This document shows, in pieces, positions 11,863 through 28,025 of a DNA stretch of 64,000 nt. The notes beneath the pieces were generated by a model. It was not told where the DNA came from and did not search any database. It worked only from the letters and a program-made list of their open reading frames with translations. How positions within the stretch are numbered: the first letter of the stretch is position 1; each line of letters starts with the position of its first letter. The stretch is from Candidatus Aenigmatarchaeota archaeon (lineage in GTDB: Archaea > Aenigmatarchaeota > Aenigmatarchaeia > QMZP01): contig JADHWJ010000002.1 of NCBI GenBank assembly GCA_016783545.1, positions 1,617-65,616 of the forward strand. Reading direction: 5' to 3'. The position numbers and the translations under genes were made by a program.

Positions 11863-12061
11863 TTCCCACCTAATTAGAATTTTAATCGCACTGTATAAGC
11901 AATTTAATATTATGTTTTATTTTACATAAACTACTTTATAAAGGTTTTATTCCCATGATTTACCCACTCATTTTTATACCATCAATCCATAGTTTATTTA
12001 TAAGTAAAAAAATACAAATTTCAATAACAAGCTAGCTTTTGAAATAAGGGATTATGGTTTT

Positions 12062-13186
12062 ATGGCCAAGAAAATAACAAAAAAGAAAGAGATTGAAAAA
12101 CTTGGAAAAAAAGAAAGGATAGAGATTCTAAAGAAATTCACTAAAGAAGCTATAAAGAAATACGGTTCTGTGATAAGAAGCATTGTTCTTTTCGGTTCAA
12201 CCGCAAGAGCTGAGTTTAAAGGCGAGTCTGATATAGACATATTTGTTATTATAGATGATACAAAACAAAAGATGACACCTGAATTGAAAGAAAGGATTGA
12301 ATTCGGACTTGATGATATAGCAAAGGGAACACACAAATTACTTTCAATGCAACAGCCATATACACTGACAGAATTCTGGAGACTTGTTAGGATGGGTCAT
12401 CCTATTGTTTTTAATTTCATAAGAGAAGGGGTTCCAATATATGACAAGGATATCTTCCTTCCAATAAAAAGGCTTTTGCAGATGGGCGAGATAAGGCCTT
12501 CTGAAGAAGCGGTTGAAAAGTTTATTGAAAGAGGACCAAAGAGGATAAAAAGGGTTGAGTCAGCCAAGATGTACATGGTTGTTGAAGACTGTTATTACGC
12601 AATGCTTGAATCAGCACAGGCTGTTCTAATGTTTATGGGCAAATACCCGCCAAGACCTAATGAAACACCAAGTGTTCTTAGAAAAACAGTTGTTAAGATG
12701 AAACTTCTTGATGAAACATTTGTAAAATATCTTGAAGATGTCATTGAGATAAGGAAAAAAGTTGAGCATAAAAAACTAAAAGAGATGTCAGGAAATGATG
12801 TTGATGAATGGATTGAAAAGACAAAGAAATTTGTAAAGAAAATGAAAGGTCTTTTGGCAAAGATTGAGGTTCTAAAAAGAGAGAACATGGTTGAGAAGAG
12901 CTATGTGATAATGGAAGAGACAATAAAGACAATACTAAAGACAATGGATAAGACAGTTCCAATGGGAAGGCTAGGTCTAAATAAAAGCTTTGAAAAAGAT
13001 CTCATTAAGACAGGCCTTGTGCCTAATGTTTATTCAAAGGTCAATAATGATCTGGAGAAAATGCACAATCTTGTAAAGAAAGGAAAAATAATGGAAATCC
13101 AGAAGCAGGATATTCTTATTAACAGGGAATATGTCAGGAAATTTATCAGGGAAGCTGGCAAGCTAATGAAGCAGTATAAAAAATAG
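12062..13186 (+). CDS. Nucleotidyltransferase-HEPN fusion protein
   Basis: LFGSTAR..SDIDIFVIIDD followed by a helical HEPN-like region (YYAMLESAQA). Confidence 0.8.
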   Translation: MAKKITKKKEIEKLGKKERIEILKKFTKEAIKKYGSVIRSIVLFGSTARAEFKGESDIDIFVIIDDTKQKMTPELKERIEFGLDDIAKGTHKLLSMQQPYTLTEFWRLVRMGHPIVFNFIREGVPIYDKDIFLPIKRLLQMGEIRPSEEAVEKFIERGPKRIKRVESAKMYMVVEDCYYAMLESAQAVLMFMGKYPPRPNETPSVLRKTVVKMKLLDETFVKYLEDVIEIRKKVEHKKLKEMSGNDVDEWIEKTKKFVKKMKGLLAKIEVLKRENMVEKSYVIMEETIKTILKTMDKTVPMGRLGLNKSFEKDLIKTGLVPNVYSKVNNDLEKMHNLVKKGKIMEIQKQDILINREYVRKFIREAGKLMKQYKK

Positions 13187-13597
13187 TCATTCTCTAAGAC
13201 TTAATCCATATCTACCAAGAATTTCTTTTACAGCTCTAAGTGATGTGGGACCAAAATGTTCATAATATAACAAATCCTTTTCAGATCTTGTTAAAAGTTG
13301 AGTGATAAGCCGAATTCCTTTAGCTTCAAAAACATTTTGACACCTTGCAGGAAACGGTAGTTCATCTACATTGCGATATGTAATATCTGTACCTGGTTCA
13401 GGGGTTTCTTTTCCCATATCATCCAGGGTAGTACATAGTTCATCTGTTACCCTATCAATCTCTTTTAGATAATTTTTTAAAAATTCGCTGTTCTCTGGAT
13501 CCTCATATTGATCCATTAAGTCCCTGGCAAATGTAGAATATCTTTTGGCTGTTGCCTTAAGGTATTCATGTCTTGCTGTCCGAATTTCCTGTTTCAT
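13187..13597 (-). CDS. Protein with C-terminal bacterial RNA polymerase alpha-CTD-like domain
   Basis: VDELPFPARCQNVFEAKGIRLITQLLTRSEKDLLYYEHFGPTSLRAVKEILGRYGLSL follows the RNA_pol_A_CTD pattern. Confidence 0.8.
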   Translation of the reverse strand: MKQEIRTARHEYLKATAKRYSTFARDLMDQYEDPENSEFLKNYLKEIDRVTDELCTTLDDMGKETPEPGTDITYRNVDELPFPARCQNVFEAKGIRLITQLLTRSEKDLLYYEHFGPTSLRAVKEILGRYGLSLRE

Positions 13598-13632
13598 ATA
13601 ATAAGATAAAATAACAGTTTATAAACACTTTA

Positions 13633-13649
13633 TCCCTTTAAAATGACAA
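13633..13649 (-). repeat. Conserved site copy TTGTCATTTTAAAGGGA
   Basis: Preceded by hairpin 13656-13688 and CTTTATA; followed by a TATA box. Confidence 0.9.
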
Positions 13650-13702
13650 TATAAAGAAGCCCTGTAAGATTGCTCAAACAGGGACTTCGTTGAGCCAACC
13701 TT

Positions 13703-13996
13703 TCAAAAAAGTAGGCTGACACTCAACAGGAGCGCTGCCAGATTGGCCACAGGTAATCCTGTTGTTACTGTCAAGAAAATCGTGTTGGCTAGGAAATTCA
13801 GTGATACTGTGTGCATCACCGGCCTCCACCAAAGATCCGCGTTGTGTGTGAAGAATTGCGAACCCAGGATGTTGCAGAGGACAATGATAATACAGTACGA
13901 AACAACAATATTGTCCACCTTCTTTTTTGCCCTTGAATAATCTATGACTATGAAGGCAAGGGACAGTACGCTTAACACTAGCCATCTAACATCCAT
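13703..13996 (-). CDS. Orphan small multi-pass membrane protein (97 aa)
   Basis: AAGGAG RBS before MDVRWLVLSVLSLAF; three hydrophobic segments. Confidence 0.7.
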   Translation of the reverse strand: MDVRWLVLSVLSLAFIVIDYSRAKKKVDNIVVSYCIIIVLCNILGSQFFTHNADLWWRPVMHTVSLNFLANTIFLTVTTGLPVANLAALLLSVSLLF

Positions 13997-14185
13997 CGGT
14001 TTCTCCTTGAAAGACTCTTTCCAGACAACTGATTCCAGTTTCTGTTCAGAGCAAGACCTAAGAAAAACAGTTCTCTCAGTACGTGTGTTGGAAAAAAACA
14101 AAACAACATTTTACAGCCTGTTTTGCTAAAACAATATTACTATTCGTAATGTTATTTATAAGTGTTTTTTTAACAAGAAATTGAG

Positions 14186-14485
14186 CTATTCCTTTCTTTT
14201 TCCGCTGCCATATTTGTTATACCAGCAAAGAATTGTCCATCTGGAAACCTTTATGCCTTCATATCTTTCCAAGTGCTTTTTTGCTTCTGCAAGAGAAAAG
14301 CCCTTTTCATATAAAGAAACAGCTTTCATGATATCTTTTCTACTGAACCTCATTCTCCAATAACCATCATGCAATGTGAATTTCCTTCCGCATTTCTTGC
14401 AAAGCCTAAGTCTTTTCTTAGTCCTATCATTATACCTGTATCCCCTGAATACAATACTTTCTGAATCGCAATATGGGCACTTCAT
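14186..14485 (-). pseudogene. Zn-ribbon + HTH protein resembling an IS6/IS1-type transposase N-terminus; no DDE domain
   Basis: MKCPYCDS..CKKCGRKF, HTH ending VSRWTILCWYNKY; stop before any catalytic domain. Confidence 0.6.
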
Positions 14486-14566
14486 GCTTATCACTCTGTA
14501 CTAAAACTTTTGTTTTCAGAGCTAATAAATGTACTATTAGAGGGATATCTTCCGGCCTTATAAATA

Positions 14567-14583
14567 TCCCTTTTAATTGACAC
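14567..14583 (-). repeat. Conserved site copy GTGTCAATTAAAAGGGA
   Basis: Preceded by hairpin 14594-14615 and CTTTATA; followed by TATTTATAAG. Confidence 0.8.
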
Positions 14584-14589
14584 TATAAA

Positions 14590-15740
14590 GGCAAGGTGGT
14601 CGGCGTAGGCCACCTATGGTCTGGAAATAGGATACTCTCCAAGGATCTCCGGTTCGAAGAGCCAGTTTCAGCCCCGGTACAATGAAGAGGACCGTTTGAG
14701 CGGGATCCTGATCCCAAAATACCGTCATCATTGTGTCGGGGGTTCCAGTGTCCCGTTTCGGCGCGCTCCAATAAAACATAGAGGAGCGATTGGCCGAGGA
14801 CTGTGCCGGGAGGACCCCCTGTGTTGGTGCTTACCTACCGGACCACCATTGCCCACCGAGAGCCTGTAGCCTTATCAGGGCTCGACTCCCGATAATTCCT
14901 ATTATTGGAGGCTTTTGGATTGTCTGTTTTGGGGCTACCTGAGACCACCTCATGTGGGTGGAAAGGTCTCGCCCCGTTTATGGTTCCCTCCCATTAGAAG
15001 GAGACCCTGAAGGATCTCCTGGGAGTCAAGTGCCTCCCCTTCGGTACAACTAACGCTCAGTGGGATAACTCCCCCCACCGTTCGTTACGAATCACATGAG
15101 GTGCGACCCAAGTCAGCCGAATCCGAACCTCATTTGCGTACTCCCCCTTTCGGGTAAGGTGCCCACCATGTTCTGGACGGGTTGGGTGGACACAGGTTGT
15201 CGGTTTCCGGTGCAACCGCCTTGCTAGGACTCCAGTAATCCCAGCTTTCGTGGCAGTTGGTAAGTGGTTGCCTCCGCGAGAGAGCAACCAACAATGCCTA
15301 GTGACTGGCCGAATTGGTGTTTGGCTTTATCTTTCAGTCTTCGCATAACACCCTTCTGCCACCTCGGACGCGAGGTTCAAAGTTGGATGTTAAAGCTAGG
15401 ACTTAGTCCTTGCCCTCGCAATTTGTTCTCCTTCCTTGCGTTGGCTAGTTTTGGCTCCCTTTAGAGCTCATCAGGAAAGCCAGCTTGGCCGAAGGAGATA
15501 TGCCAGTCTTTCAAGGTACGTCCTGATTTATAGAGATACGGTTTCTTGGCCAATAGCTACATAGGGTACTTCAAACGACAAAGCATGATGCAAATCATGC
15601 GTTTGACCTCCTTTCTAGCGGGGAGTAGGGCCATGAAAAAAATTTGGAGGGAGGGAGGCCGCCCGTGTGGGTCAGGCACGGACGACCTCCTGGGAGGGAG
15701 TTGGGTACGTAACCTAAGACAGAGAAAGATGTTAGTTTTC
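14590..15740 (-). ncRNA. Candidate large (~1.15 kb) structured non-coding RNA (island 4)
   Basis: GC-rich, no credible long ORF, dense hairpins; 14-bp helix 15654-15690 and helix 14999-15020 have G-U pairs only on the minus strand; CCC-GAAA-GGG and C-UUCG-G loops on minus. Confidence 0.65.
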
Positions 15741-15820
15741 TAGAAGTAGTACTAAAGAAAAAAATCATCTTCTCTGGGAGTTTGCAAAGCAAACCTTGTG
15801 AACTAATGAATATGAAATGA
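15740..15820 (-). promoter_or_regulatory. Conserved 5' leader shared with island 1, downstream of TATA box TTTAAATA (15851-15858)
   Basis: TTCATATTCA..GTTTGCTTTGCAAACTCCCAGAGAAGATGATTTTTTTCTTTAGTA versus 345-414. Confidence 0.7.
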
Positions 15821-15968
15821 TTAATGATACTTGACAATTCGCTCTTAATATTTAAATACTTATCCCATAAAAGTGGGAATTTCGTAAAGCCTCTTAAGGT
15901 TTCTTTTCCCAAGGGTTTTCTTGGGAGCAATATAAACAAAGAAGGTGGAAGCCTCTAAGAAAAGCCTT

Positions 15969-17990
15969 TTATACGAATTCTATCCTTTCAAACTTGCCTT
16001 TTTTCTCAAATTCCTTTACTGTAGAGATGAAAATAGTTGGCTTTCTCCCGCTTTCATAAGAGAATTTTGCAACTTCCTGTATGATTATGTTCTTTATGGA
16101 AGCGCTGGCGCATAAAAAATATTTGTTCTCTGAGACATCTTTTGCTATCTTGTCCCTGTCAAAACCAGTTTCTACCATAACAGAGATCTTTTTTCCACCT
16201 TCTTCAAATGTAAAGCAGTTCTTCTCTTCATTATATGTCCAGCCACTCTCAGAGAATATTGGATAGACATCATCTATGTTTATCTCCTTTTCCCCTTCTA
16301 TTCTACCAAATTGCTTCTCAAATATGCCCTGGCCAAGTTCTGTAAGATAATAATAATTTAGCTTGTTTTTCCCGACCTTTGCCTGTTTTATCTTAACCAG
16401 ACCAGAATCTATCAGGCCTCTTACATGTTTGTTAAATGTTGAGCCAGAAATCTTTACTGCTTTGTAAATCTGGGAAGTGAACGCAGCCCTGCCTTCACCC
16501 AAGACATGTAGTATATTCCAGCCCTGTTCTTCTAGTTCTTCTATCGGAATTTCGTCTGCTGGCTCCTTTTCAGACGAAGGCTCTTTTAGTCTTGCGAATA
16601 TTTCTGGAACCTGTGCTCTCATATGCTTTCTGACATCCTCATCTTTAATGGCACCTTTTCTCAATGAGTATTTTTTGAACTGGACAAGAAATGGGTCATG
16701 GAAAGCAGACATCCTCATTAGCATAAAACCATGCCCTATTGGTAGTTTTCTTAGATAGATACCCTGTTCTTCATAGTTTAGTCCTAGCATATTACTCGCA
16801 TCTAAGACATCAGACGCGTGTTTAGTATCCAGGCCCAGATTCATGTAGATATGTGTGGACGTGTTACCAAGTGCAGGATATGAAACAAGAGAAGGATGCT
16901 GGTCTATATAAATTATTCCCATACCAAGTTCCCTAATCTCTCTAAATATCAAATCCATGACTGTTTCTATACCAAGTGATGATGATTTTTCCCTATTCAA
17001 TACATGGTGCGCTTCTTCAAGTATAATAACACCCTGAAGCTCTTCCTTTTTCCCATGTATGAGAAGCCAATCTCTTATCCATTGAAGAATAATCTCTATG
17101 AAGAATGCCCTGTCATTTGCATCCAATGCATCTAGTTCTAATATGGTTATCTTTCCTTTCTGGAAAAATTCCGAGGGCTGAATACCTTCTTTGCATTTCC
17201 ATATCTCAGCAATCTCTCTGAAGCAAAGGCTTGCTAGAGGTCTTAGTGAAGTAGAAAGCCAGTTCCTTTCCCTTGATGAAAGAGACTCTCCTCCGTACCC
17301 CTCAAGCCAGCGTTTAATATCTGAAAGAATAGGATGCTGCTTCTCTTCGTGTATAGCATCCAGGCTTTTCATTATAAGATGCCTTCCGCCGCCCATAAGC
17401 ATGTACGCATGATCAAATATAGAAGAAAATTCCTTCATCCATTGGGATATCTGTATACCTTCTGGTGGTTTTAATGGATTGAATTTAAATGGTGCTGGAT
17501 CTCTTCCAATCGTATATACGTTTATGTGATCCTTTAGCTTTGTCTGTAAAAGATCCCTGTAATTTCTTTTGGAGAAATCAAATATCAGAATAGGAACATC
17601 ATTTTCGTTTATCTTATCTATAAGATCATATGCGATGTTTGTCTTTCCATAACCTGTAGAACCGAATATGCCTATGTGTGTAAGAAGCGCGTTCTTTCCT
17701 ATTTTCAGTGGATAGAGTCTTTTCTTTCCATATAGAACTTCTCCTATTTCTATATCACCAGACATTGCTATCTCTTTGTTTGGAGGTTCCATTAGAACAG
17801 AATCCCTTAGATCTTCATCAGAGAATGTAGCAGCCTTCAAAACATCAATAAGCTCAAATATTCTTTTCCTTGTGTCTTCGTCTGCCAGGAGGTATGCTCT
17901 TCCAAGTCTTGTAGCGCTTGCTTTTCCCAAGACAGGGATAAGTCTCTTTATTTCATCTGAAACCAGTCTTTCATGCATTTCTGTAACCAT
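15969..17990 (-). CDS. HerA/FtsK-like (DUF87) ATPase with C-terminal winged helix
   Basis: GIFGSTGYGKT Walker A, IILEEAHH Walker B, RELGMGIIYIDQHPS. Confidence 0.85.
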   Translation of the reverse strand: MVTEMHERLVSDEIKRLIPVLGKASATRLGRAYLLADEDTRKRIFELIDVLKAATFSDEDLRDSVLMEPPNKEIAMSGDIEIGEVLYGKKRLYPLKIGKNALLTHIGIFGSTGYGKTNIAYDLIDKINENDVPILIFDFSKRNYRDLLQTKLKDHINVYTIGRDPAPFKFNPLKPPEGIQISQWMKEFSSIFDHAYMLMGGGRHLIMKSLDAIHEEKQHPILSDIKRWLEGYGGESLSSRERNWLSTSLRPLASLCFREIAEIWKCKEGIQPSEFFQKGKITILELDALDANDRAFFIEIILQWIRDWLLIHGKKEELQGVIILEEAHHVLNREKSSSLGIETVMDLIFREIRELGMGIIYIDQHPSLVSYPALGNTSTHIYMNLGLDTKHASDVLDASNMLGLNYEEQGIYLRKLPIGHGFMLMRMSAFHDPFLVQFKKYSLRKGAIKDEDVRKHMRAQVPEIFARLKEPSSEKEPADEIPIEELEEQGWNILHVLGEGRAAFTSQIYKAVKISGSTFNKHVRGLIDSGLVKIKQAKVGKNKLNYYYLTELGQGIFEKQFGRIEGEKEINIDDVYPIFSESGWTYNEEKNCFTFEEGGKKISVMVETGFDRDKIAKDVSENKYFLCASASIKNIIIQEVAKFSYESGRKPTIFISTVKEFEKKGKFERIEFV

Positions 17991-18008
17991 AATTCCTCAA
18001 AATTTGCT

Positions 18009-18557
18009 CTATCTACCTTTGAATATTTTTACTATCTTTTTTTCTGTTTCAAATTGTTCTGAAAGCTCCCTAAACTCTGTTCTTAATTCCAATATATCCC
18101 GCCAGAACTGTAAATTTTCAGATCTTTTTTCCTTTCTAAGAATACTCATATCCAATTTTATGGCTCTCTTTTCATCAAGGTCTCCCACCTTCTCCATCAT
18201 CCTTTCCTTTTCTAATAAATCAACATCTATGTCATCTAAAACATCTTGGTGAATCTTTCCTCTCATTTCAATTGTCTTTTCTATCTCTTCTATTCTTGTT
18301 TTAAGAAATTCCACTCTGTCAAATAGACCACCAATAATATTAGGAGCAAGTCTTTCCAATGGCTGTATTTTTGTTTCCTCCATTTTTGGCATTGACCGTC
18401 TTTTGATAACCGTTTCAACTCTTTCTTCCACAGGTTTTTCTTCATATTCATCTTCCAGATCTTCAAGAAGTGTTTCTATCGGTGCTTCTGCCTCTTCTTT
18501 TTTCTTTTTATAAATATCGTCATCGTCTTCTGTTACATAACCTGGACCTATTGGCAT
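18009..18557 (-). CDS. Acidic coiled-coil protein, co-oriented with the ATPase
   Basis: 182-aa ORF, heptad-rich E/K/L/I. Confidence 0.75.
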   Translation of the reverse strand: MPIGPGYVTEDDDDIYKKKKEEAEAPIETLLEDLEDEYEEKPVEERVETVIKRRSMPKMEETKIQPLERLAPNIIGGLFDRVEFLKTRIEEIEKTIEMRGKIHQDVLDDIDVDLLEKERMMEKVGDLDEKRAIKLDMSILRKEKRSENLQFWRDILELRTEFRELSEQFETEKKIVKIFKGR

Positions 18558-18652
18558 TGTCTATCACCCTCCAAATAAATAAAATATCACAAGACAATAT
18601 ATACTTGTCTTTCTTACTAAAAAATGAAAGATATATTCTATGGAATTCGTAA

Positions 18653-18940
18653 CTAATACCCTGTGCTGCCGCTTGCCTTTGGATGATCTTTTTTCAATGT
18701 CCTTTTGCATGCCCTGTATGCATCTGAATTCGATGTTTCAGCTGGCAATGTAGTGCAGAGAATCTCCCTTTCTTTCAAAACAATTATATTACCATCTGTT
18801 CTTTCTCTGAAAATTTTTCTTAAAACCCTAACTTCTGTTTCATTCCTTTTAAAAAAATAGAATTCGTCACGTTCTCCACTGTACGCATATCCAGATTTAC
18901 CATCATCTTCATCTCTCCAAAAGACTTCTCCTTTAACCAT
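18653..18940 (-). CDS. Orphan protein
   Basis: 95-aa ORF with a TATA box and a degenerate conserved site upstream. Confidence 0.6.
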   Translation of the reverse strand: MVKGEVFWRDEDDGKSGYAYSGERDEFYFFKRNETEVRVLRKIFRERTDGNIIVLKEREILCTTLPAETSNSDAYRACKRTLKKDHPKASGSTGY

Positions 18941-18975
18941 TTTTATAGAAAGATAAATGATTTATAAAGTTCTTA

Positions 18976-18992
18976 TCCCCTTTAATGAAGAA
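18976..18992 (-). repeat. Degenerate conserved site TTCTTCATTAAAGGGGA
   Basis: Followed by TAAGAACTTTATAAA, as in other promoter-linked copies. Confidence 0.45.
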
Positions 18993-18995
18993 ACC

Positions 18996-19877
18996 CTAAA
19001 CCCCTGCCATCAATCTAATCAAATCCCTTAAACCAGGTGCTAGTCCAAGAATTATTACAACTATTTTCAAGAAATTTCTGAAATCTCTCTGTTCTGCATA
19101 TTGGTCTATAAGATACAGAACAGGTATCACAACAACTATCTTCAGGAAGAACATTGAGATTGGTCCAAATAATGCAGCAGAAACCCTAGGAACAACATGT
19201 TGTTCCAGATAACCAAAAATAGAGAGTGCAAAATATGTGGCAGAGGCGTCTAGGAAATGTGCACCCAAAACTATTTGATTTGTGGAAGAAAGCGGATTTT
19301 TTACTTTAAAATAGTCCAAACTTTTGCTAATTCCATAAAATAGCAGCATTAGGAGTAAAGTAGTGCCAATTATAAGGTAAAATGGCAGAAAATTCGAAAT
19401 TGGGAGCAATAGGGTAACTCTAACGCATAAAATTAGACCTATAATCGCCATAATGGCCCAATATGGGCTTCTAGGGGCATTTTTAGAGGCAAGTAGGTGC
19501 ATTTCAGGCTTAAAATGGGCAGTTACCTTTGATATAACAAGGGAGAAAATAAGCACACCTAACGCAAGGAAAAATGTTATTATATAGCTTCCAGGGGTTG
19601 GGAATATCAAAGAGCCATAAAATTGGTTCAATTCCGGTGTTAAAACACCTGTTACAGCAGAGTCATGTAAAACCCTTGTAGAAGAAGCCCAATATATGAA
19701 TGGTAAAATGGCTATGAAAAAATACCTGTCTATGTGTATATTCATTTTCCTAAGAAGCCTATATACCAAATATACAGCTACTACAAGTATCAAACCATAT
19801 ACTATCGTATTGAATGGGTTGAACCAACCGTTCTGAGTAATTGGCTGCAAAAAATATGTTTGGATAAAGTCTAACAT
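18996..19877 (-). CDS. DUF63 family membrane protein
   Basis: FNPFNTIVYG, AHFLDASATY, YLEQHVVPR, ILGLAPGLRD. Confidence 0.85.
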   Translation of the reverse strand: MLDFIQTYFLQPITQNGWFNPFNTIVYGLILVVAVYLVYRLLRKMNIHIDRYFFIAILPFIYWASSTRVLHDSAVTGVLTPELNQFYGSLIFPTPGSYIITFFLALGVLIFSLVISKVTAHFKPEMHLLASKNAPRSPYWAIMAIIGLILCVRVTLLLPISNFLPFYLIIGTTLLLMLLFYGISKSLDYFKVKNPLSSTNQIVLGAHFLDASATYFALSIFGYLEQHVVPRVSAALFGPISMFFLKIVVVIPVLYLIDQYAEQRDFRNFLKIVVIILGLAPGLRDLIRLMAGV

Positions 19878-23731: not shown

Positions 23732-24160
23732 GAAAAAGCTTTATATACCACTAATACAATTAATCTTATCTGTCACTATGTAATAGTGATAATTAAAGGG
23801 AGAACATGGGAGTAACTCATGTTCTATGAAACTTAAATAGAGTTGCAATGCAACCGAAAGTTTCATAAATAGTAATTACAAATAAAAGAGATCAGGTGTC
23901 AAATTTGTCCCGCAAGGGTGAATTTGGCAAACTCTCCCATCTTGGAACTGCCAGTTGGCAGTTCCTCTTGGACCATTGGTTGTAAAAGATCAATGGTTTT
24001 ATCCTTACAAACACAATTGAACTGGCTTACTATCTTCGGATATACCAGTTCAAACCGAGTGAATACACGGATTAAAGGGCCAAATTTTTCTAGTTCTGAG
24101 AATCTTCAATGATTTTCTTCAAGGTCTTTTGTCTGTCTACTCGGTAATTACATAATTGTT

Positions 24161-24500
24161 AGGGACAGGAAGCGGGGTCGGTAAAACCATCCCCGATTAC
24201 TATACATCGCAACGGTAGGAGTCGCGAGTCCGCCCGCAGTACCACGCCTAATGGCTGGTAATGGCCGGCATAATTCCTACCCGGGGTCGGAACCACCCCG
24301 CTTCCTCCCTTCGGCTTCTAAGGTATACAGCCCCCTTTAGAAGAATACACCGAAGGATTCAAACGGTTCAGGGGCAATGTGGTGCACCATAATATTACAT
24401 AGGAGTATATAGGTGCACAAGGACGCCGAAGGGAGTCCCGAAAATTTGTCGTACCTCACTATGACATATGGTGAGGCACTCGCGTCCTCTAAGAGGACAC
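24161..24500 (+). ncRNA. Candidate structured RNA / long leader
   Basis: AGGAAGCGGGGT pairs with ACCCCGCTTCCT and encloses GGTAGGA/TCCTACC; four more hairpins follow. Confidence 0.55.
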
Positions 24501-24546
24501 TGATGTTTCGCTGATGGAGTCTTTTTCACTGAAAGGAGTGAAAGAG

Positions 24547-25086
24547 ATGGAAGAAGAAAGACGGTCAGAAGAAAGAGCAGACGCATACGAAGAGTTGGGT
24601 GAGGTTGCTGTGCCCACACCCGAGACCGCGCCGGAACCCACGGGTGGGATCACGATCAGGTTCACTCGCGGGAACGTAGTTTCCGCATTGATCGGAGCCC
24701 TGATTTGTTTCGGGGTGATGTACCTGATCTCCGAGGGAAACGACCGGCGACAGGTCGACGAGATCACCGAGCTGCGCGAGGTCGGCCTGAAGCTGCACAC
24801 CCTGGCCCAGAAGGCGTTCGACAAGTGCCGGGATATCGAGGGCTACGAGCGGGCCACGTTGAAGGTCCCGGCGATTTTGGCAAAGGGGCAGAAGGTCGAG
24901 ACCGCACCGAAACCGAAGCCCCGACAGGTCGAGCCGGAGCCGCAGCCTGAACCGGTCTACGACGACCCGGAGCCCGAGGTCGTGGAGCCTGAGCCGGTCA
25001 CGACCAACGACGACCCTCGGACCGAGGATCCCCCACCCATCGCGAACGATGAGTTTGAGGATGGGGGCGACGAAGGCGGCGAGTAG
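24547..25086 (+). CDS. Orphan membrane-anchored protein with Pro/Glu-rich acidic tail
   Basis: AAAGGAG RBS; TM VVSALIGALICFGVMYLI; ELREVGLK motif; ends DEGGE. Confidence 0.8.
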   Translation: MEEERRSEERADAYEELGEVAVPTPETAPEPTGGITIRFTRGNVVSALIGALICFGVMYLISEGNDRRQVDEITELREVGLKLHTLAQKAFDKCRDIEGYERATLKVPAILAKGQKVETAPKPKPRQVEPEPQPEPVYDDPEPEVVEPEPVTTNDDPRTEDPPPIANDEFEDGGDEGGE

Positions 25087-25096
25087 TTTTCGCTGC

Positions 25097-25151
25097 AACG
25101 GGAGTCCTATAGGCCTCGGGACTTCCTTAACAAAATAAAGGGAGGCCTACT
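25097..25151 (+). repeat. 55-bp intergenic direct repeat, copy 1
   Basis: AACGGGAGTCCTATAGGCCTCGGGACTTCCTTAACAAAATAAAGGGAGGCCTACT identical at 26162-26216. Confidence 0.95.
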
Positions 25152-25190
25152 GATGGATGTTGACGTTCGACGGTAAGAAAGGGACACAAC

Positions 25191-26153
25191 ATGAGGACGA
25201 GAGCCCTCACGGCCGCGCTCATTTTCACGGCCGCAACCATAGGACTCGCTGGGAGCGCCCGCGAGCATTACAAGGTCGGCGTCCGGCACATGATTCAGGG
25301 GTCTGATGCATATAACCCCCGTGCCGCGATGGAGGCCTTCAGCAAGGTATGTGAAGCCGATCCCACGTACGGGAACTCGATTGGCTTTGCGAAGCCTGTC
25401 AAGGAGCAGCTGTTCAACGCTGCTATGGCGTACTTCTCCGAAGTTACGGAGTCAGAGATGACTCTGGAGAAGAAGTTGGAAGAGCTGACTGCGATTAGGA
25501 TTGCATTGTTCATGTGTAAGTCAGATCGAGGTCAGTTCTCAGAAGTTGACCAAAGTGGTCTGAACGCGAAGATCATGGCGGTCAACGCGGTAGCCCAACG
25601 GGTGCAGGAGGTCATTAGGGCGCAATCCCGACAGGCCGAGCCGGAGAAGTTCGACGCAGCCGCGACGATGCAAGAGGTCGCGACACGTTACGATACGGCC
25701 AAGCGAGAGCTGGCCTTCGCGTCTCAGCTCGTGGGAGAGGTCCTTGAACAGGACCCGGACCATGAGGAAGCGAATCGGGCCAGGGAGCTCCTTGAGATTC
25801 GCCTCATACCAGTGGATGAGTTCAATGAGCTCAATGCGACCGTCTCGTTGCTGAAACAGACGGTTAACGAGGCCGCGGACAAGATTCGCGAGGCCCGGCA
25901 GGATCACGCGCGCCGGGTCCTTTACTCGCGCGAGCTGCGCGAGGTCGGGCTGAAGTTTCACGAGCTCGCCGAGATCAGTTACAACAAGTGGCTGAAGTTG
26001 GCCAAGCCCGGAAGCGAGGCTCGGACGCTGAAGCTTCCGGAGGTGCTGGAATACGAGCCGTTCATCTCGGAGCAGGTCCTTGATCTGGTTCACGACGATG
26101 AGCAGCACGAAGGCGACGAGCACGAAGCCGACGACGACGAAGGCGGTGAGTAA
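25191..26153 (+). CDS. Orphan secreted helical (TPR-like) protein, paralog of 24547-25086
   Basis: Signal peptide MRTRALTAALIFTAA; ELREVGLKFHELA; ends DEGGE. Confidence 0.8.
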   Translation: MRTRALTAALIFTAATIGLAGSAREHYKVGVRHMIQGSDAYNPRAAMEAFSKVCEADPTYGNSIGFAKPVKEQLFNAAMAYFSEVTESEMTLEKKLEELTAIRIALFMCKSDRGQFSEVDQSGLNAKIMAVNAVAQRVQEVIRAQSRQAEPEKFDAAATMQEVATRYDTAKRELAFASQLVGEVLEQDPDHEEANRARELLEIRLIPVDEFNELNATVSLLKQTVNEAADKIREARQDHARRVLYSRELREVGLKFHELAEISYNKWLKLAKPGSEARTLKLPEVLEYEPFISEQVLDLVHDDEQHEGDEHEADDDEGGE

Positions 26154-26161
26154 CTAGCCGT

Positions 26162-26216
26162 AACGGGAGTCCTATAGGCCTCGGGACTTCCTTAACAAAA
26201 TAAAGGGAGGCCTACT
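26162..26216 (+). repeat. 55-bp intergenic direct repeat, copy 2
   Basis: Identical to 25097-25151. Confidence 0.95.
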
Positions 26217-26259
26217 TTGGACGTGAAGTTGGGACGTTTTCAGAAGAAGGAGTAGTACC

Positions 26260-26754
26260 ATGAGAGCGATCACGATCGCCCTTATCACCGTTGCCGGACT
26301 GTCGTTCATCGGGTCGGTCGAGGCAGCGGAGATCGATTTGGACGCCGCATTGGCGGAAGTGACGGCCGCGCCGGATACGACGGCCGCGCCGGTTCGGAGA
26401 AGTACCAGTGCCCAGAGGCCGGTGGTTCGGAGAAGCGCCACCAGGGTCGCATACCCGGCCGCTCAGGCGCATGCTGATGCCGCAGTCACGGACATTGAGT
26501 CCAGTATCACTGAGGCCGAGGCACACGGGCGTGTTCGCCGCGCCCAGGCTGATAGGGTAGTTTCCGCAGCAGAAGAGGCCGAGGCCATGGCAGATGCGGC
26601 GGCGGCTCGGGCCCGTAGGGCGCAGGCCGAGGCACGCTTCGAGGGTGCCCGGAGCGAATTCCATAGTGGTTGCAGCGATGCGGCTGCCACACAGTATCGG
26701 ACACATCTCCGGCGCGTGACCCGTGCCAGCGGAGGTCGGGTGCCTGTTCGGTAA
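26260..26754 (+). CDS. Orphan secreted Ala/Arg-rich coiled-coil protein
   Basis: GAAGGAG RBS; signal peptide MRAITIALITVAGLSFIGSVEA; internal 27-30 nt duplication (TTAAPVRRST/AQRPVVRRSA). Confidence 0.75.
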   Translation: MRAITIALITVAGLSFIGSVEAAEIDLDAALAEVTAAPDTTAAPVRRSTSAQRPVVRRSATRVAYPAAQAHADAAVTDIESSITEAEAHGRVRRAQADRVVSAAEEAEAMADAAAARARRAQAEARFEGARSEFHSGCSDAAATQYRTHLRRVTRASGGRVPVR

Positions 26755-26765
26755 TACCCGATCTC

Positions 26766-26809
26766 AACCTCCCCCTGGTGGCATACAACCAGCTTGCCAG
26801 GGGGAGGTT
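26766..26809 (+). terminator. 13-bp perfect hairpin (terminator or processing site)
   Basis: AACCTCCCCCTGG..CCAGGGGGAGGTT. Confidence 0.55.
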
Positions 26810-26879
26810 AGCGTCCTTAAAAAGCTGGTTTTTCACCAGACCAGTCAAAACAACGAGACCTTCTTGAAAGGAGGTTGTC

Positions 26880-27239
26880 ATGTGGAGAATAAGTACAGGC
26901 GAGCTGGCACTTTTGATCATCGGCAGCTTTGTTGCCGGTGCAGTTGTTGCCGGCTTTCTTAGTCGGTTGGTGCGGGGTCGAGGCAAGCCGTCTCCGGCAG
27001 CTCAGCCAGTGCCAGTGCCGAGCGAGTCGGAAGTCGTTCTGACGAAAAGGGAGCTGACGGCTCTGGTGAAGAGCCAGGTTGTTAGTGCTCTCAAGGAGAA
27101 GGAGCTGGGAGCACAGCCCGAGCCGATAGAGCCGCCGGAGTTGACCAAACTGTCGGTAGAAGAAGTGGTTGATGCAATACCCGAATCAATCACCGCCGAG
27201 AAGGAGGAGGAAGTACCCGAGAAAGGAGAAGACTCATGA
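26880..27239 (+). CDS. Orphan single-pass membrane protein
   Basis: AAAGGAGG RBS; TM LALLIIGSFVAGAVVAGFL. Confidence 0.75.
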   Translation: MWRISTGELALLIIGSFVAGAVVAGFLSRLVRGRGKPSPAAQPVPVPSESEVVLTKRELTALVKSQVVSALKEKELGAQPEPIEPPELTKLSVEEVVDAIPESITAEKEEEVPEKGEDS

Positions 27240-27826
27240 GGAATCTGAGTTTCGCCGCCATCATAGCGGCTCTCCTTCTTGTAGGTTGTGAGAGGGAGAA
27301 GAGTTCCAGCAGCCGAGGGCGCACAACCAGGCGCGCCGCCGATGGGGAGAAGTTGACCCTTCGGGACCTGCAGGCGGATCCTAACGGGTTCGCTATCGTG
27401 GACCCAGACCGCCGGCGAATGAAGCTCCCCATGAGCTTCAGAATCGTCAGAGCCATGGACGGCGGGTCCGGTGAGGAAGTTATGCTGGTCGCTTATCTTG
27501 GGGGTGAGGAGAGCCCCAGCGATGAGCAGGACGGGGTTGAGGAAGATGTACCGCCGAACTATGTTCTCGTCCGGGTTCGGCGGGCGTGTGGTGTAGATCT
27601 CCTTGGCGGGGAGACGAACGCCAACTGCCGCCTCTTTGTGAAGAAGTTCGAGCGCAAAGGGACGGTGGAGATGGGCGATCACGGTGACGAATTGTATGTA
27701 ATCACGGTCGCTCGCGGGGACATCTACTACAACTACGACGTCATGTCCCTGAGCGGCGATAACATGACGGATACGGTTGAGCGAGACCGGCCGCCGGATC
27801 CGGTGCGGCACCACAGCTACCCGTAA
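27236..27826 (+). CDS. Orphan putative lipoprotein
   Basis: MRNLSFAAIIAALLLVG-C lipobox; ATGA overlap with the previous gene. Confidence 0.75.
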   Translation: MRNLSFAAIIAALLLVGCEREKSSSSRGRTTRRAADGEKLTLRDLQADPNGFAIVDPDRRRMKLPMSFRIVRAMDGGSGEEVMLVAYLGGEESPSDEQDGVEEDVPPNYVLVRVRRACGVDLLGGETNANCRLFVKKFERKGTVEMGDHGDELYVITVARGDIYYNYDVMSLSGDNMTDTVERDRPPDPVRHHSYP

Positions 27827-27989
27827 GGGAAATGAATACCAGGTCCCTCCCAAGGGGTGGAGGGGCCTGGTGGCCTCTTGAGAGAAAGGAGATGAAAATC
27901 ATGTTGTGACGCCTTTCACAAAAACAACACAATGTTGAGGGTACGGCAACAGTACCAGAAAGGGAGTGGCGCCCCACAGTTGCTTTATG

Positions 27990-28025
27990 ATGTCTTTTTA
28001 ACGGTATATACCATTAACTTGACTG
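27990..28025. repeat. Two degenerate conserved sites head-to-head (27990-28006 +, 28009-28025 -) around palindrome GGTATATACC
   Basis: ATGTCTTTTTAACGGTA and CAGTCAAGTTAATGGTA, each preceded by a hairpin. Confidence 0.7.

Follow-up and report, generated by a model that had tools for sequence, protein, structure and literature searches.

[quoted passage not shown] Its DNA-binding surface, the 265 determinant, is made up of R265, N268, C269, G296, K298 and S299. Region 4 of sigma-70 is contacted through a patch formed by D259 and E261, and CAP is contacted through residues 285-290 and 315-318; Spx and NusA also dock on the bacterial domain. Isolated alpha-CTD binds DNA weakly in bacteria and reportedly recognizes UP elements via the 265 determinant. 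Copies of the domain also occur in proteins other than RpoA, for which we found no tested function in the literature. The literature search on alpha-CTD outside RpoA or in archaea returned nothing relevant beyond one paper, which reported sigma-70 genes in DPANN archaea (Castelle et al., 2021; PMC8204110).

Here we analyze a 136-aa protein encoded in a 64-kb stretch of DNA (hereafter the window) of a Candidatus Aenigmatarchaeota archaeon. An initial annotation had described it as a stand-alone alpha-CTD in an archaeon and had proposed that it acts as a decoy or effector against bacterial transcription or is a repurposed DNA-binding domain. Our analysis showed that alpha-CTD recurs in a few percent of related archaea, where it most likely serves as a reused module for DNA binding and not as an anti-bacterial weapon.

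Gene, assembly and host

The coding sequence occupies positions 13187..13597 of the minus strand, stop codon included, exactly where the initial annotation had placed it in the ORF list. It starts with ATG, and its frame is open for 143 codons only, which leaves no room for a longer gene of which the 136-aa protein would be the tail. The alpha-CTD match in a six-frame search of the whole genome scored 43.1 bits. The gene had been described as AT-rich, which is true (35.5% GC, GC3 20%), but this value matches the genome mean of 35.9% and does not distinguish the gene from its surroundings. By composition, therefore, the alpha-CTD gene is no recent arrival.

The host genome is a metagenome-assembled genome (MAG) of 886 kb in 18 contigs, with 35.9% GC, 70% completeness and 0.1% contamination. 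The alpha-CTD gene is carried by a contig of 101 kb; the gene for proteasome beta is 1.3 kb away, and aCPSF1 adjoins. The lineage was named from a scan with aCPSF1, since a scan of named genomes with the alpha-CTD protein gave no relative; aCPSF1 was 62-66% identical to its counterparts in MAGs labelled Candidatus Aenigmatarchaeota. TBP (97 bits, two repeats) and TFB are present in the genome, and sigma-70 region 2 went undetected in a profile search of this 70%-complete sequence. The host is an Aenigmatarchaeota-like DPANN archaeon with TBP/TFB and without a bacterial polymerase, and its assignment to the archaea is borne out by aCPSF1, TBP, TFB and the missing sigma-70 region 2 alike.

The same protein, 100% identical, was found on contigs from three samples, each assembled independently, and the arrangement of the nucleotidyltransferase, proteasome beta and aCPSF1 genes was alike in those assemblies, as seen on the two longer contigs. 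Identity of the protein and its neighbours in three independent metagenome assemblies excludes a chimera or a mis-binned bacterial contig. Samples from two studies, which are aquatic and marine metagenomes, carry the identical alpha-CTD sequence. This exact protein has been seen in a single population, and all sequencing runs that contain the locus are DNA runs.

Domain identity and predicted structure

Pfam family RNA_pol_A_CTD (PF03118) matched residues 70-127 with 42.3 bits (E 6.1e-11; profile positions 8-65 of 67), compared to the curated gathering score of 23.8 bits for this family. Other Pfam matches were weak (SAM_2, E 0.095; CTD12, E 0.16). The C-terminal motif on which the initial annotation had based its reading is present (VDELPFPARCQNVFEAKGIRLITQLLTRSEKDLLYYEHFGPTSLRAVKEILGRYGLSL). 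When phmmer was run against all PDB sequences, every match below E 1e-3 was an RpoA chain; Francisella alpha-2 ranked first (3.5e-7) and E. coli 1COO second (2.4e-6). Assignment to a generic helix-hairpin-helix (HhH) family by HMM or structure, the alternative raised at the outset, was not obtained: HHH, HHH_2 and HHH_5 gave no match in the 136-aa protein even at E<=1, and the fold matches RpoA. The protein also lacks any Pfam match to the RpoA N-terminal domain (RNA_pol_L / RNA_pol_A_bac), in agreement with its description as a stand-alone copy, and any Pfam match to Sigma70_r4.

An AlphaFold2 model was computed from an alignment of eight rows in which relatives are present for the C-terminal domain only; its mean pLDDT was 82.9 and its pTM 0.49. 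The alpha-CTD, residues 72-136 (13190..13384, minus strand), was modelled with pLDDT 84-96 as a compact unit of four-to-five helices with two helix-hairpin-helix motifs, and it superposed on solved alpha-CTDs (3N97, 1LB2, 1Z3E, 9ZUM) at ~1 A. The best 50 Foldseek matches in the PDB were all RpoA. The isolated CTD chains 8Y5T, 1Z3E, 3N97, 1LB2_E and 9ZUM aligned to the model with an rmsd of 0.9-1.4 A over 57-66 residues, and the target TM for isolated alpha-CTD chains was 0.78-0.94. Profile score and model agree, and the identification of the domain as alpha-CTD stands.

The remainder of the chain is an N-terminal helical hairpin, residues 2-63 (13409..13594, minus strand; block pLDDT 68-83), and a linker, residues 64-71 (ETPEPGTD; 13385..13408, minus strand), which has no secondary structure in the model (mean pLDDT 53 for block 61-70) and is predicted to be flexible. 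The hairpin prediction is effectively single-sequence. Charge calculation gave a basic first helix (residues 2-30, pI 9.8), an acidic second helix (residues 34-63, pI 4.3) and a basic alpha-CTD part (pI 8.9). Comparison of the hairpin with all relatives collected (BLASTP, phmmer --max and hhalign) gave no significant match. A 127-residue tblastn alignment to L121, a longer fusion protein described below, had raised the idea that the hairpin is the spacer between sigma region 4 (sigma-r4) and alpha-CTD; this idea was dropped after profile comparison gave no confirmation. The hairpin may be an oligomerisation or partner-binding module. The protein is small and cytoplasmic and consists of a two-helix hairpin, a short Pro-rich linker and a bacterial-type alpha-CTD. 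This layout is without relative. The domain call itself is not new, since domain databases already carry the PF03118 tag on this protein and non-RpoA copies of alpha-CTD are abundant in metagenomes.

DNA-contact and partner-contact positions

Residues were mapped with a HMMER alignment to E. coli alpha, anchored on R265 and on the last residue, E329, in E. coli numbering. Equivalents of four of the six residues of the 265 determinant are kept (R85=R265, N88=N268, G116=G296 and S119=S299). The other two are changed, C269 to V89 and K298 to T118, so DNA affinity may be low. In the sigma-70 contact patch, E79 corresponds to D259 and P81 to E261, which places a proline at a contact residue. The chain stops at the equivalent of M316 and lacks R317 and L318; the C-terminal part of the CAP-contact patch is therefore missing. 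By this alignment, the query retains most of the DNA-contact positions but not the patches that contact sigma-70 and CAP.

The same positions were compared among 416 alpha-CTD copies, most of them non-RpoA. R265 is present in 82% of these, G296 in 88%, S299 in 68% and N268 in 53%, and threonine is the commonest state at position 298 (48%), so the query follows the consensus of the non-RpoA copies. Its states R/N/V/G/T/S at 265/268/269/296/298/299 are each the commonest or among the top three.

Relatives and distribution

A word-indexed homologue search returned only the protein itself. HMMER over 1.84 billion representatives gave 741 matches at E<=1e-3, all via the C-terminal domain. The best 149 matches (self excluded) each have at least two alpha-CTD copies, and they rank at the top partly because scores add up. 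Matches were re-scored per domain, as ranking in the representative library favours multi-domain proteins. The best relatives include proteins with TPR and two alpha-CTDs (~440 aa), proteins in which alpha-CTD is repeated up to 11-13 times, and combinations of Sigma70_r4 with alpha-CTD. The best per-domain score of the query was 46.5 bits, against multi-domain relatives, compared to 38.0 against RpoA of Francisella, 37.4 against the archaeal protein L002 and 31.7 against RpoA of E. coli.

A maximum likelihood tree (FastTree) was built from 418 domain copies; with 60 columns it is weak, and only two RpoA references were included. The query paired with L002, an archaeal copy of the same family, with local support of 0.93, and this pair fell inside a clade of non-RpoA copies that are sigma-r4-linked or multi-repeat (0.90, 0.75), apart from RpoA of E. 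coli and Francisella. The archaeal copies were spread over half the tree. The query domain belongs to a large, uncharacterised radiation of non-RpoA alpha-CTD copies.

The initial annotation had implied a one-off occurrence, which proved incorrect: alpha-CTD proteins are found in 3.5-5% of the genomes in two DPANN phyla. The Pfam cut-off was passed by 20 of the 371 genomes from the phylum to which the window belongs (5 of 61 for the nearest relatives) and by 14 of the 401 from another DPANN phylum, which centres on a genome with the label Candidatus Nanoarchaeia. Some of the matches in other MAGs lie on short contigs (e.g., L012 on a 2.5-kb locus). The domain was detected in none of four model archaea used as a control set.

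Archaeal alpha-CTD proteins fall into two classes. The first consists of small proteins of 72-218 aa whose N-termini before the alpha-CTD are mutually unalignable (for example L002, L003, L004, L005, L017, L022, L023, L122, L124 and L128). Within this class, L122 (1219-1770, plus strand) is a 183-aa stand-alone alpha-CTD with an RpoA-type tail, LGMRLENYVPP, in 29%-GC DNA with a diphthamide-synthase-like ORF adjoining; an RpoA tail in an archaeal context suggests that the 3' end of a bacterial rpoA gene was captured here. The alpha-CTD gene of L022 starts shortly past the 3' end of an apparent tRNA gene (GGTTCGAATCCCGGCGGACGCA), which lies ~70 nt upstream of 1911 (minus strand). The 3' ends of tRNA genes are a common integration point for mobile elements.

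The second class consists of fusions of ~230-420 aa in which Sigma70_r4 is followed by alpha-CTD. It contains a well-conserved family of ~390-420 aa, common to both DPANN phyla, that combines a helix-turn-helix domain (HTH), Sigma70_r4 and alpha-CTD. Its members are L121 (541-1707, plus strand), L120, L123, L125, L126, L127, L012 (1096-2328, minus strand) and L016 (1321-2580, minus strand); the fusion in L125 has two alpha-CTDs. Genes of this family are located on contigs of 140-704 kb beside genes that resemble, by eye and from N-terminal sequence, those for methionyl-tRNA synthetase or EF-2. The family probably corresponds to the sigma-70 genes reported earlier in DPANN (Castelle et al., 2021). 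No such fusion gene was detected in the 70%-complete genome of our host. We also considered whether the gene is one half of a split gene with a separate sigma-r4 partner in the genome, where the best Sigma70_r4-like match was TFB, or the remainder of a longer fusion gene with a decayed upstream part, of which tblastn detected no remnant in the upstream DNA.

Promoter and genomic context

The gene had been described as driven by a site-linked promoter, and the sequence is consistent with this description. An exact copy of a repeated 18-nt box, ATTGTCATTTTAAAGGGA, is present at 13633..13650 on the minus strand, and a TATA-box-like element, TTTATAAA, follows 7 nt past the box at 13618..13625 (minus strand), 21-28 nt 5' of the ATG. 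Inspection of the 20 bases between TTTATAAA and the ATG detected no Shine-Dalgarno sequence, and transcription probably starts at the ATG or slightly upstream of it, with a minimal leader or none. The box itself follows a predicted RNA hairpin at 13656..13688 (minus strand), at the end of the upstream unit, with TTTAT separating the hairpin (13688-13656) from the box (13650-13633). The fold of 13628-13700 (minus strand) had an energy of -19.4 kcal/mol (z = -2.2). Downstream of the gene, a T6 run at 13178..13183 (minus strand), 4 nt past the stop codon, may act as an oligo-T terminator; it falls within the 3'-terminal part of the nucleotidyltransferase gene that converges on this one.

The box occurs eight times in the window, compared to 0.17 copies expected by chance, and 25 times in the genome, 11 of them on this contig. 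The copies in the window are at 13633-13650 and 14567-14584 (both minus strand) and at 1299, 8550, 22408, 22954, 23714 and 39553. An AAAGCTTTATAAA-type element is also found 3' of other box copies, and we observed that copies often have a hairpin and TTATA before them and an AAAGCTTTATAAA-type promoter after them. No box was found beside the alpha-CTD genes of other genomes of the same family.

The convergent neighbour (12062-13186, plus strand), whose stop codon abuts that of the alpha-CTD gene, encodes a 374-aa nucleotidyltransferase with an N-terminal minimal nucleotidyltransferase domain (Polbeta/NTP_transf_2, also PADLOC PDC-S09) and a weak HEPN match at residues 166-262; it may be a fused MNT-HEPN-type module. 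On the upstream side, between a Zn-ribbon ORF and the box, a putative small membrane protein of ~97 aa (MDVRWLVLSVLSLAFIV...) is encoded at 13703-14000 (minus strand) by an ORF left uncalled by the gene caller of the public contigs. The Zn-ribbon ORF itself (14186-14494, minus strand), preceded by a box copy, encodes 102 aa with a Zn ribbon and helices and is weakly similar to transposase N-termini and to zinc ribbons of the Ogr/Delta or InsA type. Further upstream on the same strand are the box at 14567-14584, a 1.15-kb GC-rich block without ORFs, and a HerA-like ATPase with a winged helix. Another GC-rich region was observed at 24001-28000 of the window, where 4 kb have 54-61% GC in a genome of 36% GC, ORFs overlap on both strands, and there is no Rfam match; Rfam and tRNA scans of the entire 64-kb window returned nothing.

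Synteny with the closest named Aenigmatarchaeota stops right past proteasome beta (window 11863-19000 compared to positions 1-5000 of L040 and L042). At this location the relatives encode a small GTPase, a protein of 116-131 aa and a Zn-ribbon protein, none of which was detected by tblastn in the 70%-complete genome of the host. The neighbours of proteasome beta thus differ in the relatives and are undetectable here, so the alpha-CTD gene sits at a variable spot. With the three flanking genes of the relatives undetectable in this incomplete genome, the region could not be given the borders of a clean insertion. Archaeal alpha-CTD genes share no conserved gene neighbourhood, and their context does not indicate a target.

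Proposed function and alternatives

Repurposing of a DNA-binding domain, the second proposal of the initial annotation, would fit the kept equivalents of R265, N268, G296 and S299. Given that the bacterial partners are absent from the host, the only activity left to a solo domain would be binding to the minor groove of A/T-rich DNA via the R265 and N268 equivalents. We propose that the protein is a small minor-groove binder of A/T tracts, probably oligomeric via its hairpin, that acts as a local regulator or architectural protein; we rate the chance of this specific role as a little short of even. The alpha-CTD would work alone, as it does in bacteria, with R85 and N88 entering the narrow minor groove of A/T-rich DNA and G116 and S119 touching the DNA backbone. 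Two copies would associate through their hairpins in a four-helix bundle, or the hairpin would dock on a partner. Pairing would produce a bivalent binder with two tethered heads, which is the logic of the bacterial alpha dimer minus the polymerase. Because isolated alpha-CTD binds weakly, function would depend on this putative oligomerisation. In a genome of 36% GC, such a protein could act at A/T tracts near promoters. The domain would first have been acquired from bacteria and would now be compositionally native, in a variable, box-delimited stretch of the chromosome. A broader scenario, which we regard as conceivable and rather unlikely, is that DPANN archaea adopted alpha-CTD and sigma region 4, the two parts of the bacterial holoenzyme that touch promoter DNA, as free or fused regulators acting on TBP/TFB promoters, with the 136-aa protein as a minimal, self-associating form that modulates transcription through UP-element-like DNA.

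The domain could instead serve as a protein-protein adaptor that docks bacterial-type transcription factors or other proteins, with DNA binding being incidental. Alpha-CTD is a well-known interaction hub, complexes of this kind (1LB2, 1Z3E, 3GFK and 8IGR) are among the fold matches, archaeal regulators are mostly of bacterial type, and the modelled orphan hairpin might link the domain to another component. However, the partner patches have diverged (E261 to Pro, R317 and L318 absent) whereas the DNA-contact residues are conserved in this protein and in the non-RpoA copies, and no candidate partner is co-encoded, the sole abutting gene being convergent, which makes an adaptor improbable. The gene may also be cargo or a regulator of the box-delimited variable array and, for example, bind to the A/T-rich box or to promoters downstream of it, a possibility that overlaps with the role as an A/T-tract binder. 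Consistent with this, the gene begins 36 nt past a perfect box, itself after a hairpin; the box at 14567-14584, the Zn-ribbon ORF and the ORF-less GC-rich block lie upstream on the same strand; nearby genes look like those of defence systems or mobile elements (the nucleotidyltransferase with weak HEPN and the HerA-like ATPase with a winged helix); and synteny with the nearest named relatives breaks exactly here. Yet alpha-CTD genes of the same family in other genomes occur without the box, most genomes of the family are without any alpha-CTD, and many unrelated genes also adjoin a box, so we assign only a small likelihood to a function tied to the array.

The patchy distribution and the orphan N-terminus would be expected of a functionless relic, still open by chance and left over from either the capture of an rpoA 3' end or a fusion gene of sigma-r4 and alpha-CTD, and L122 with its tail LGMRLENY shows that such captures happen. 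The frame of our gene is intact, however, and has its own TATA-like element; the domain is modelled with confidence (pLDDT 84-96) and keeps its key residues; tblastn found no remains of sigma-r4 or HTH upstream; the base composition is fully native; and the sequence is identical in samples from two studies. A relic is accordingly very unlikely. The remaining alternative is the decoy or effector of the initial annotation, i.e., a free alpha-CTD that would sequester activators or UP elements inside a bacterium, whether host or competitor. Only two points favour it: the domain is of bacterial ancestry, and it scores well against real RpoA CTDs (32-38 bits). A signal peptide, a membrane segment and a secretion-linked neighbour are all absent, as read from the sequence, and the N-terminus (MKQEIRTARHEYLK) is hydrophilic and helical. 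The protein had no match to phage or defence families (tblastn against phage records; PHROGs; PADLOC), which leaves a viral or defence origin without support. The sigma-70 and CAP contact patches are degraded, with proline at E261 and the C-terminal part of the CAP patch lacking, and the known hosts of DPANN are archaea. In other DPANN genomes, alpha-CTD is joined to further DNA-binding domains in a housekeeping context on the chromosome, which speaks for a use within the cell. We therefore consider the decoy claim scarcely credible.

Comparison with known systems

The closest characterized counterpart of the protein is the alpha-CTD of RpoA (E. coli residues ~249-329; 1COO, 1LB2, 3N97, 9ZUM), with which it shares the Pfam family, the fold at ~1 A and 30-38% identity. 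Both have R265, N268, G296 and S299 or their equivalents and a preceding flexible linker. In contrast to RpoA, the query has an orphan hairpin in place of the RpoA N-terminal domain and resides in a host without a bacterial polymerase; E261 is replaced by Pro, K298 by Thr and C269 by Val, and the tail with R317 and L318 is missing. Generic HhH domains, which are widespread in archaea (HHH_5, HHH_2, HHH; e.g., the N-terminus of RadA), share the superfold and the mode of non-specific contact with the DNA backbone. The query differs from them in that it matches none at E<=1, scores 42 bits with RNA_pol_A_CTD and has RpoA as all of its top folds.

No relatives of the query domain score higher than the non-RpoA alpha-CTD proteins (up to 46.5 bits per domain), which are known from sequence databases only and among which the query nests in the tree. 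They have the same DNA-contact consensus, including Thr at 298, but the query is single-copy and lacks TPR, Sel1 and sigma-r4. The DPANN family with HTH, Sigma70_r4 and alpha-CTD belongs to the same superphylum as the host and carries the same module borrowed from bacterial transcription, and its alpha-CTD is C-terminal and follows a helical spacer, as in the query. Unlike this family, the query has no sigma-r4 or HTH, and the hhalign match between the two covers residues 73-135 only.

The gene is an orphan of one population, and its individual importance is therefore modest. Its wider meaning lies in an alpha-CTD that exists apart from the polymerase, which makes the domain a portable DNA-binding module. 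The recurrence of this module in two DPANN phyla, alone or fused to sigma region 4, makes the earlier reports of DPANN sigma factors concrete. If the protein binds A/T tracts near archaeal promoters, parts of bacterial promoter recognition would have been rewired into archaeal transcription, and the resulting UP-element-like regulation of archaeal promoters would be, if true, a mode not described for archaea.
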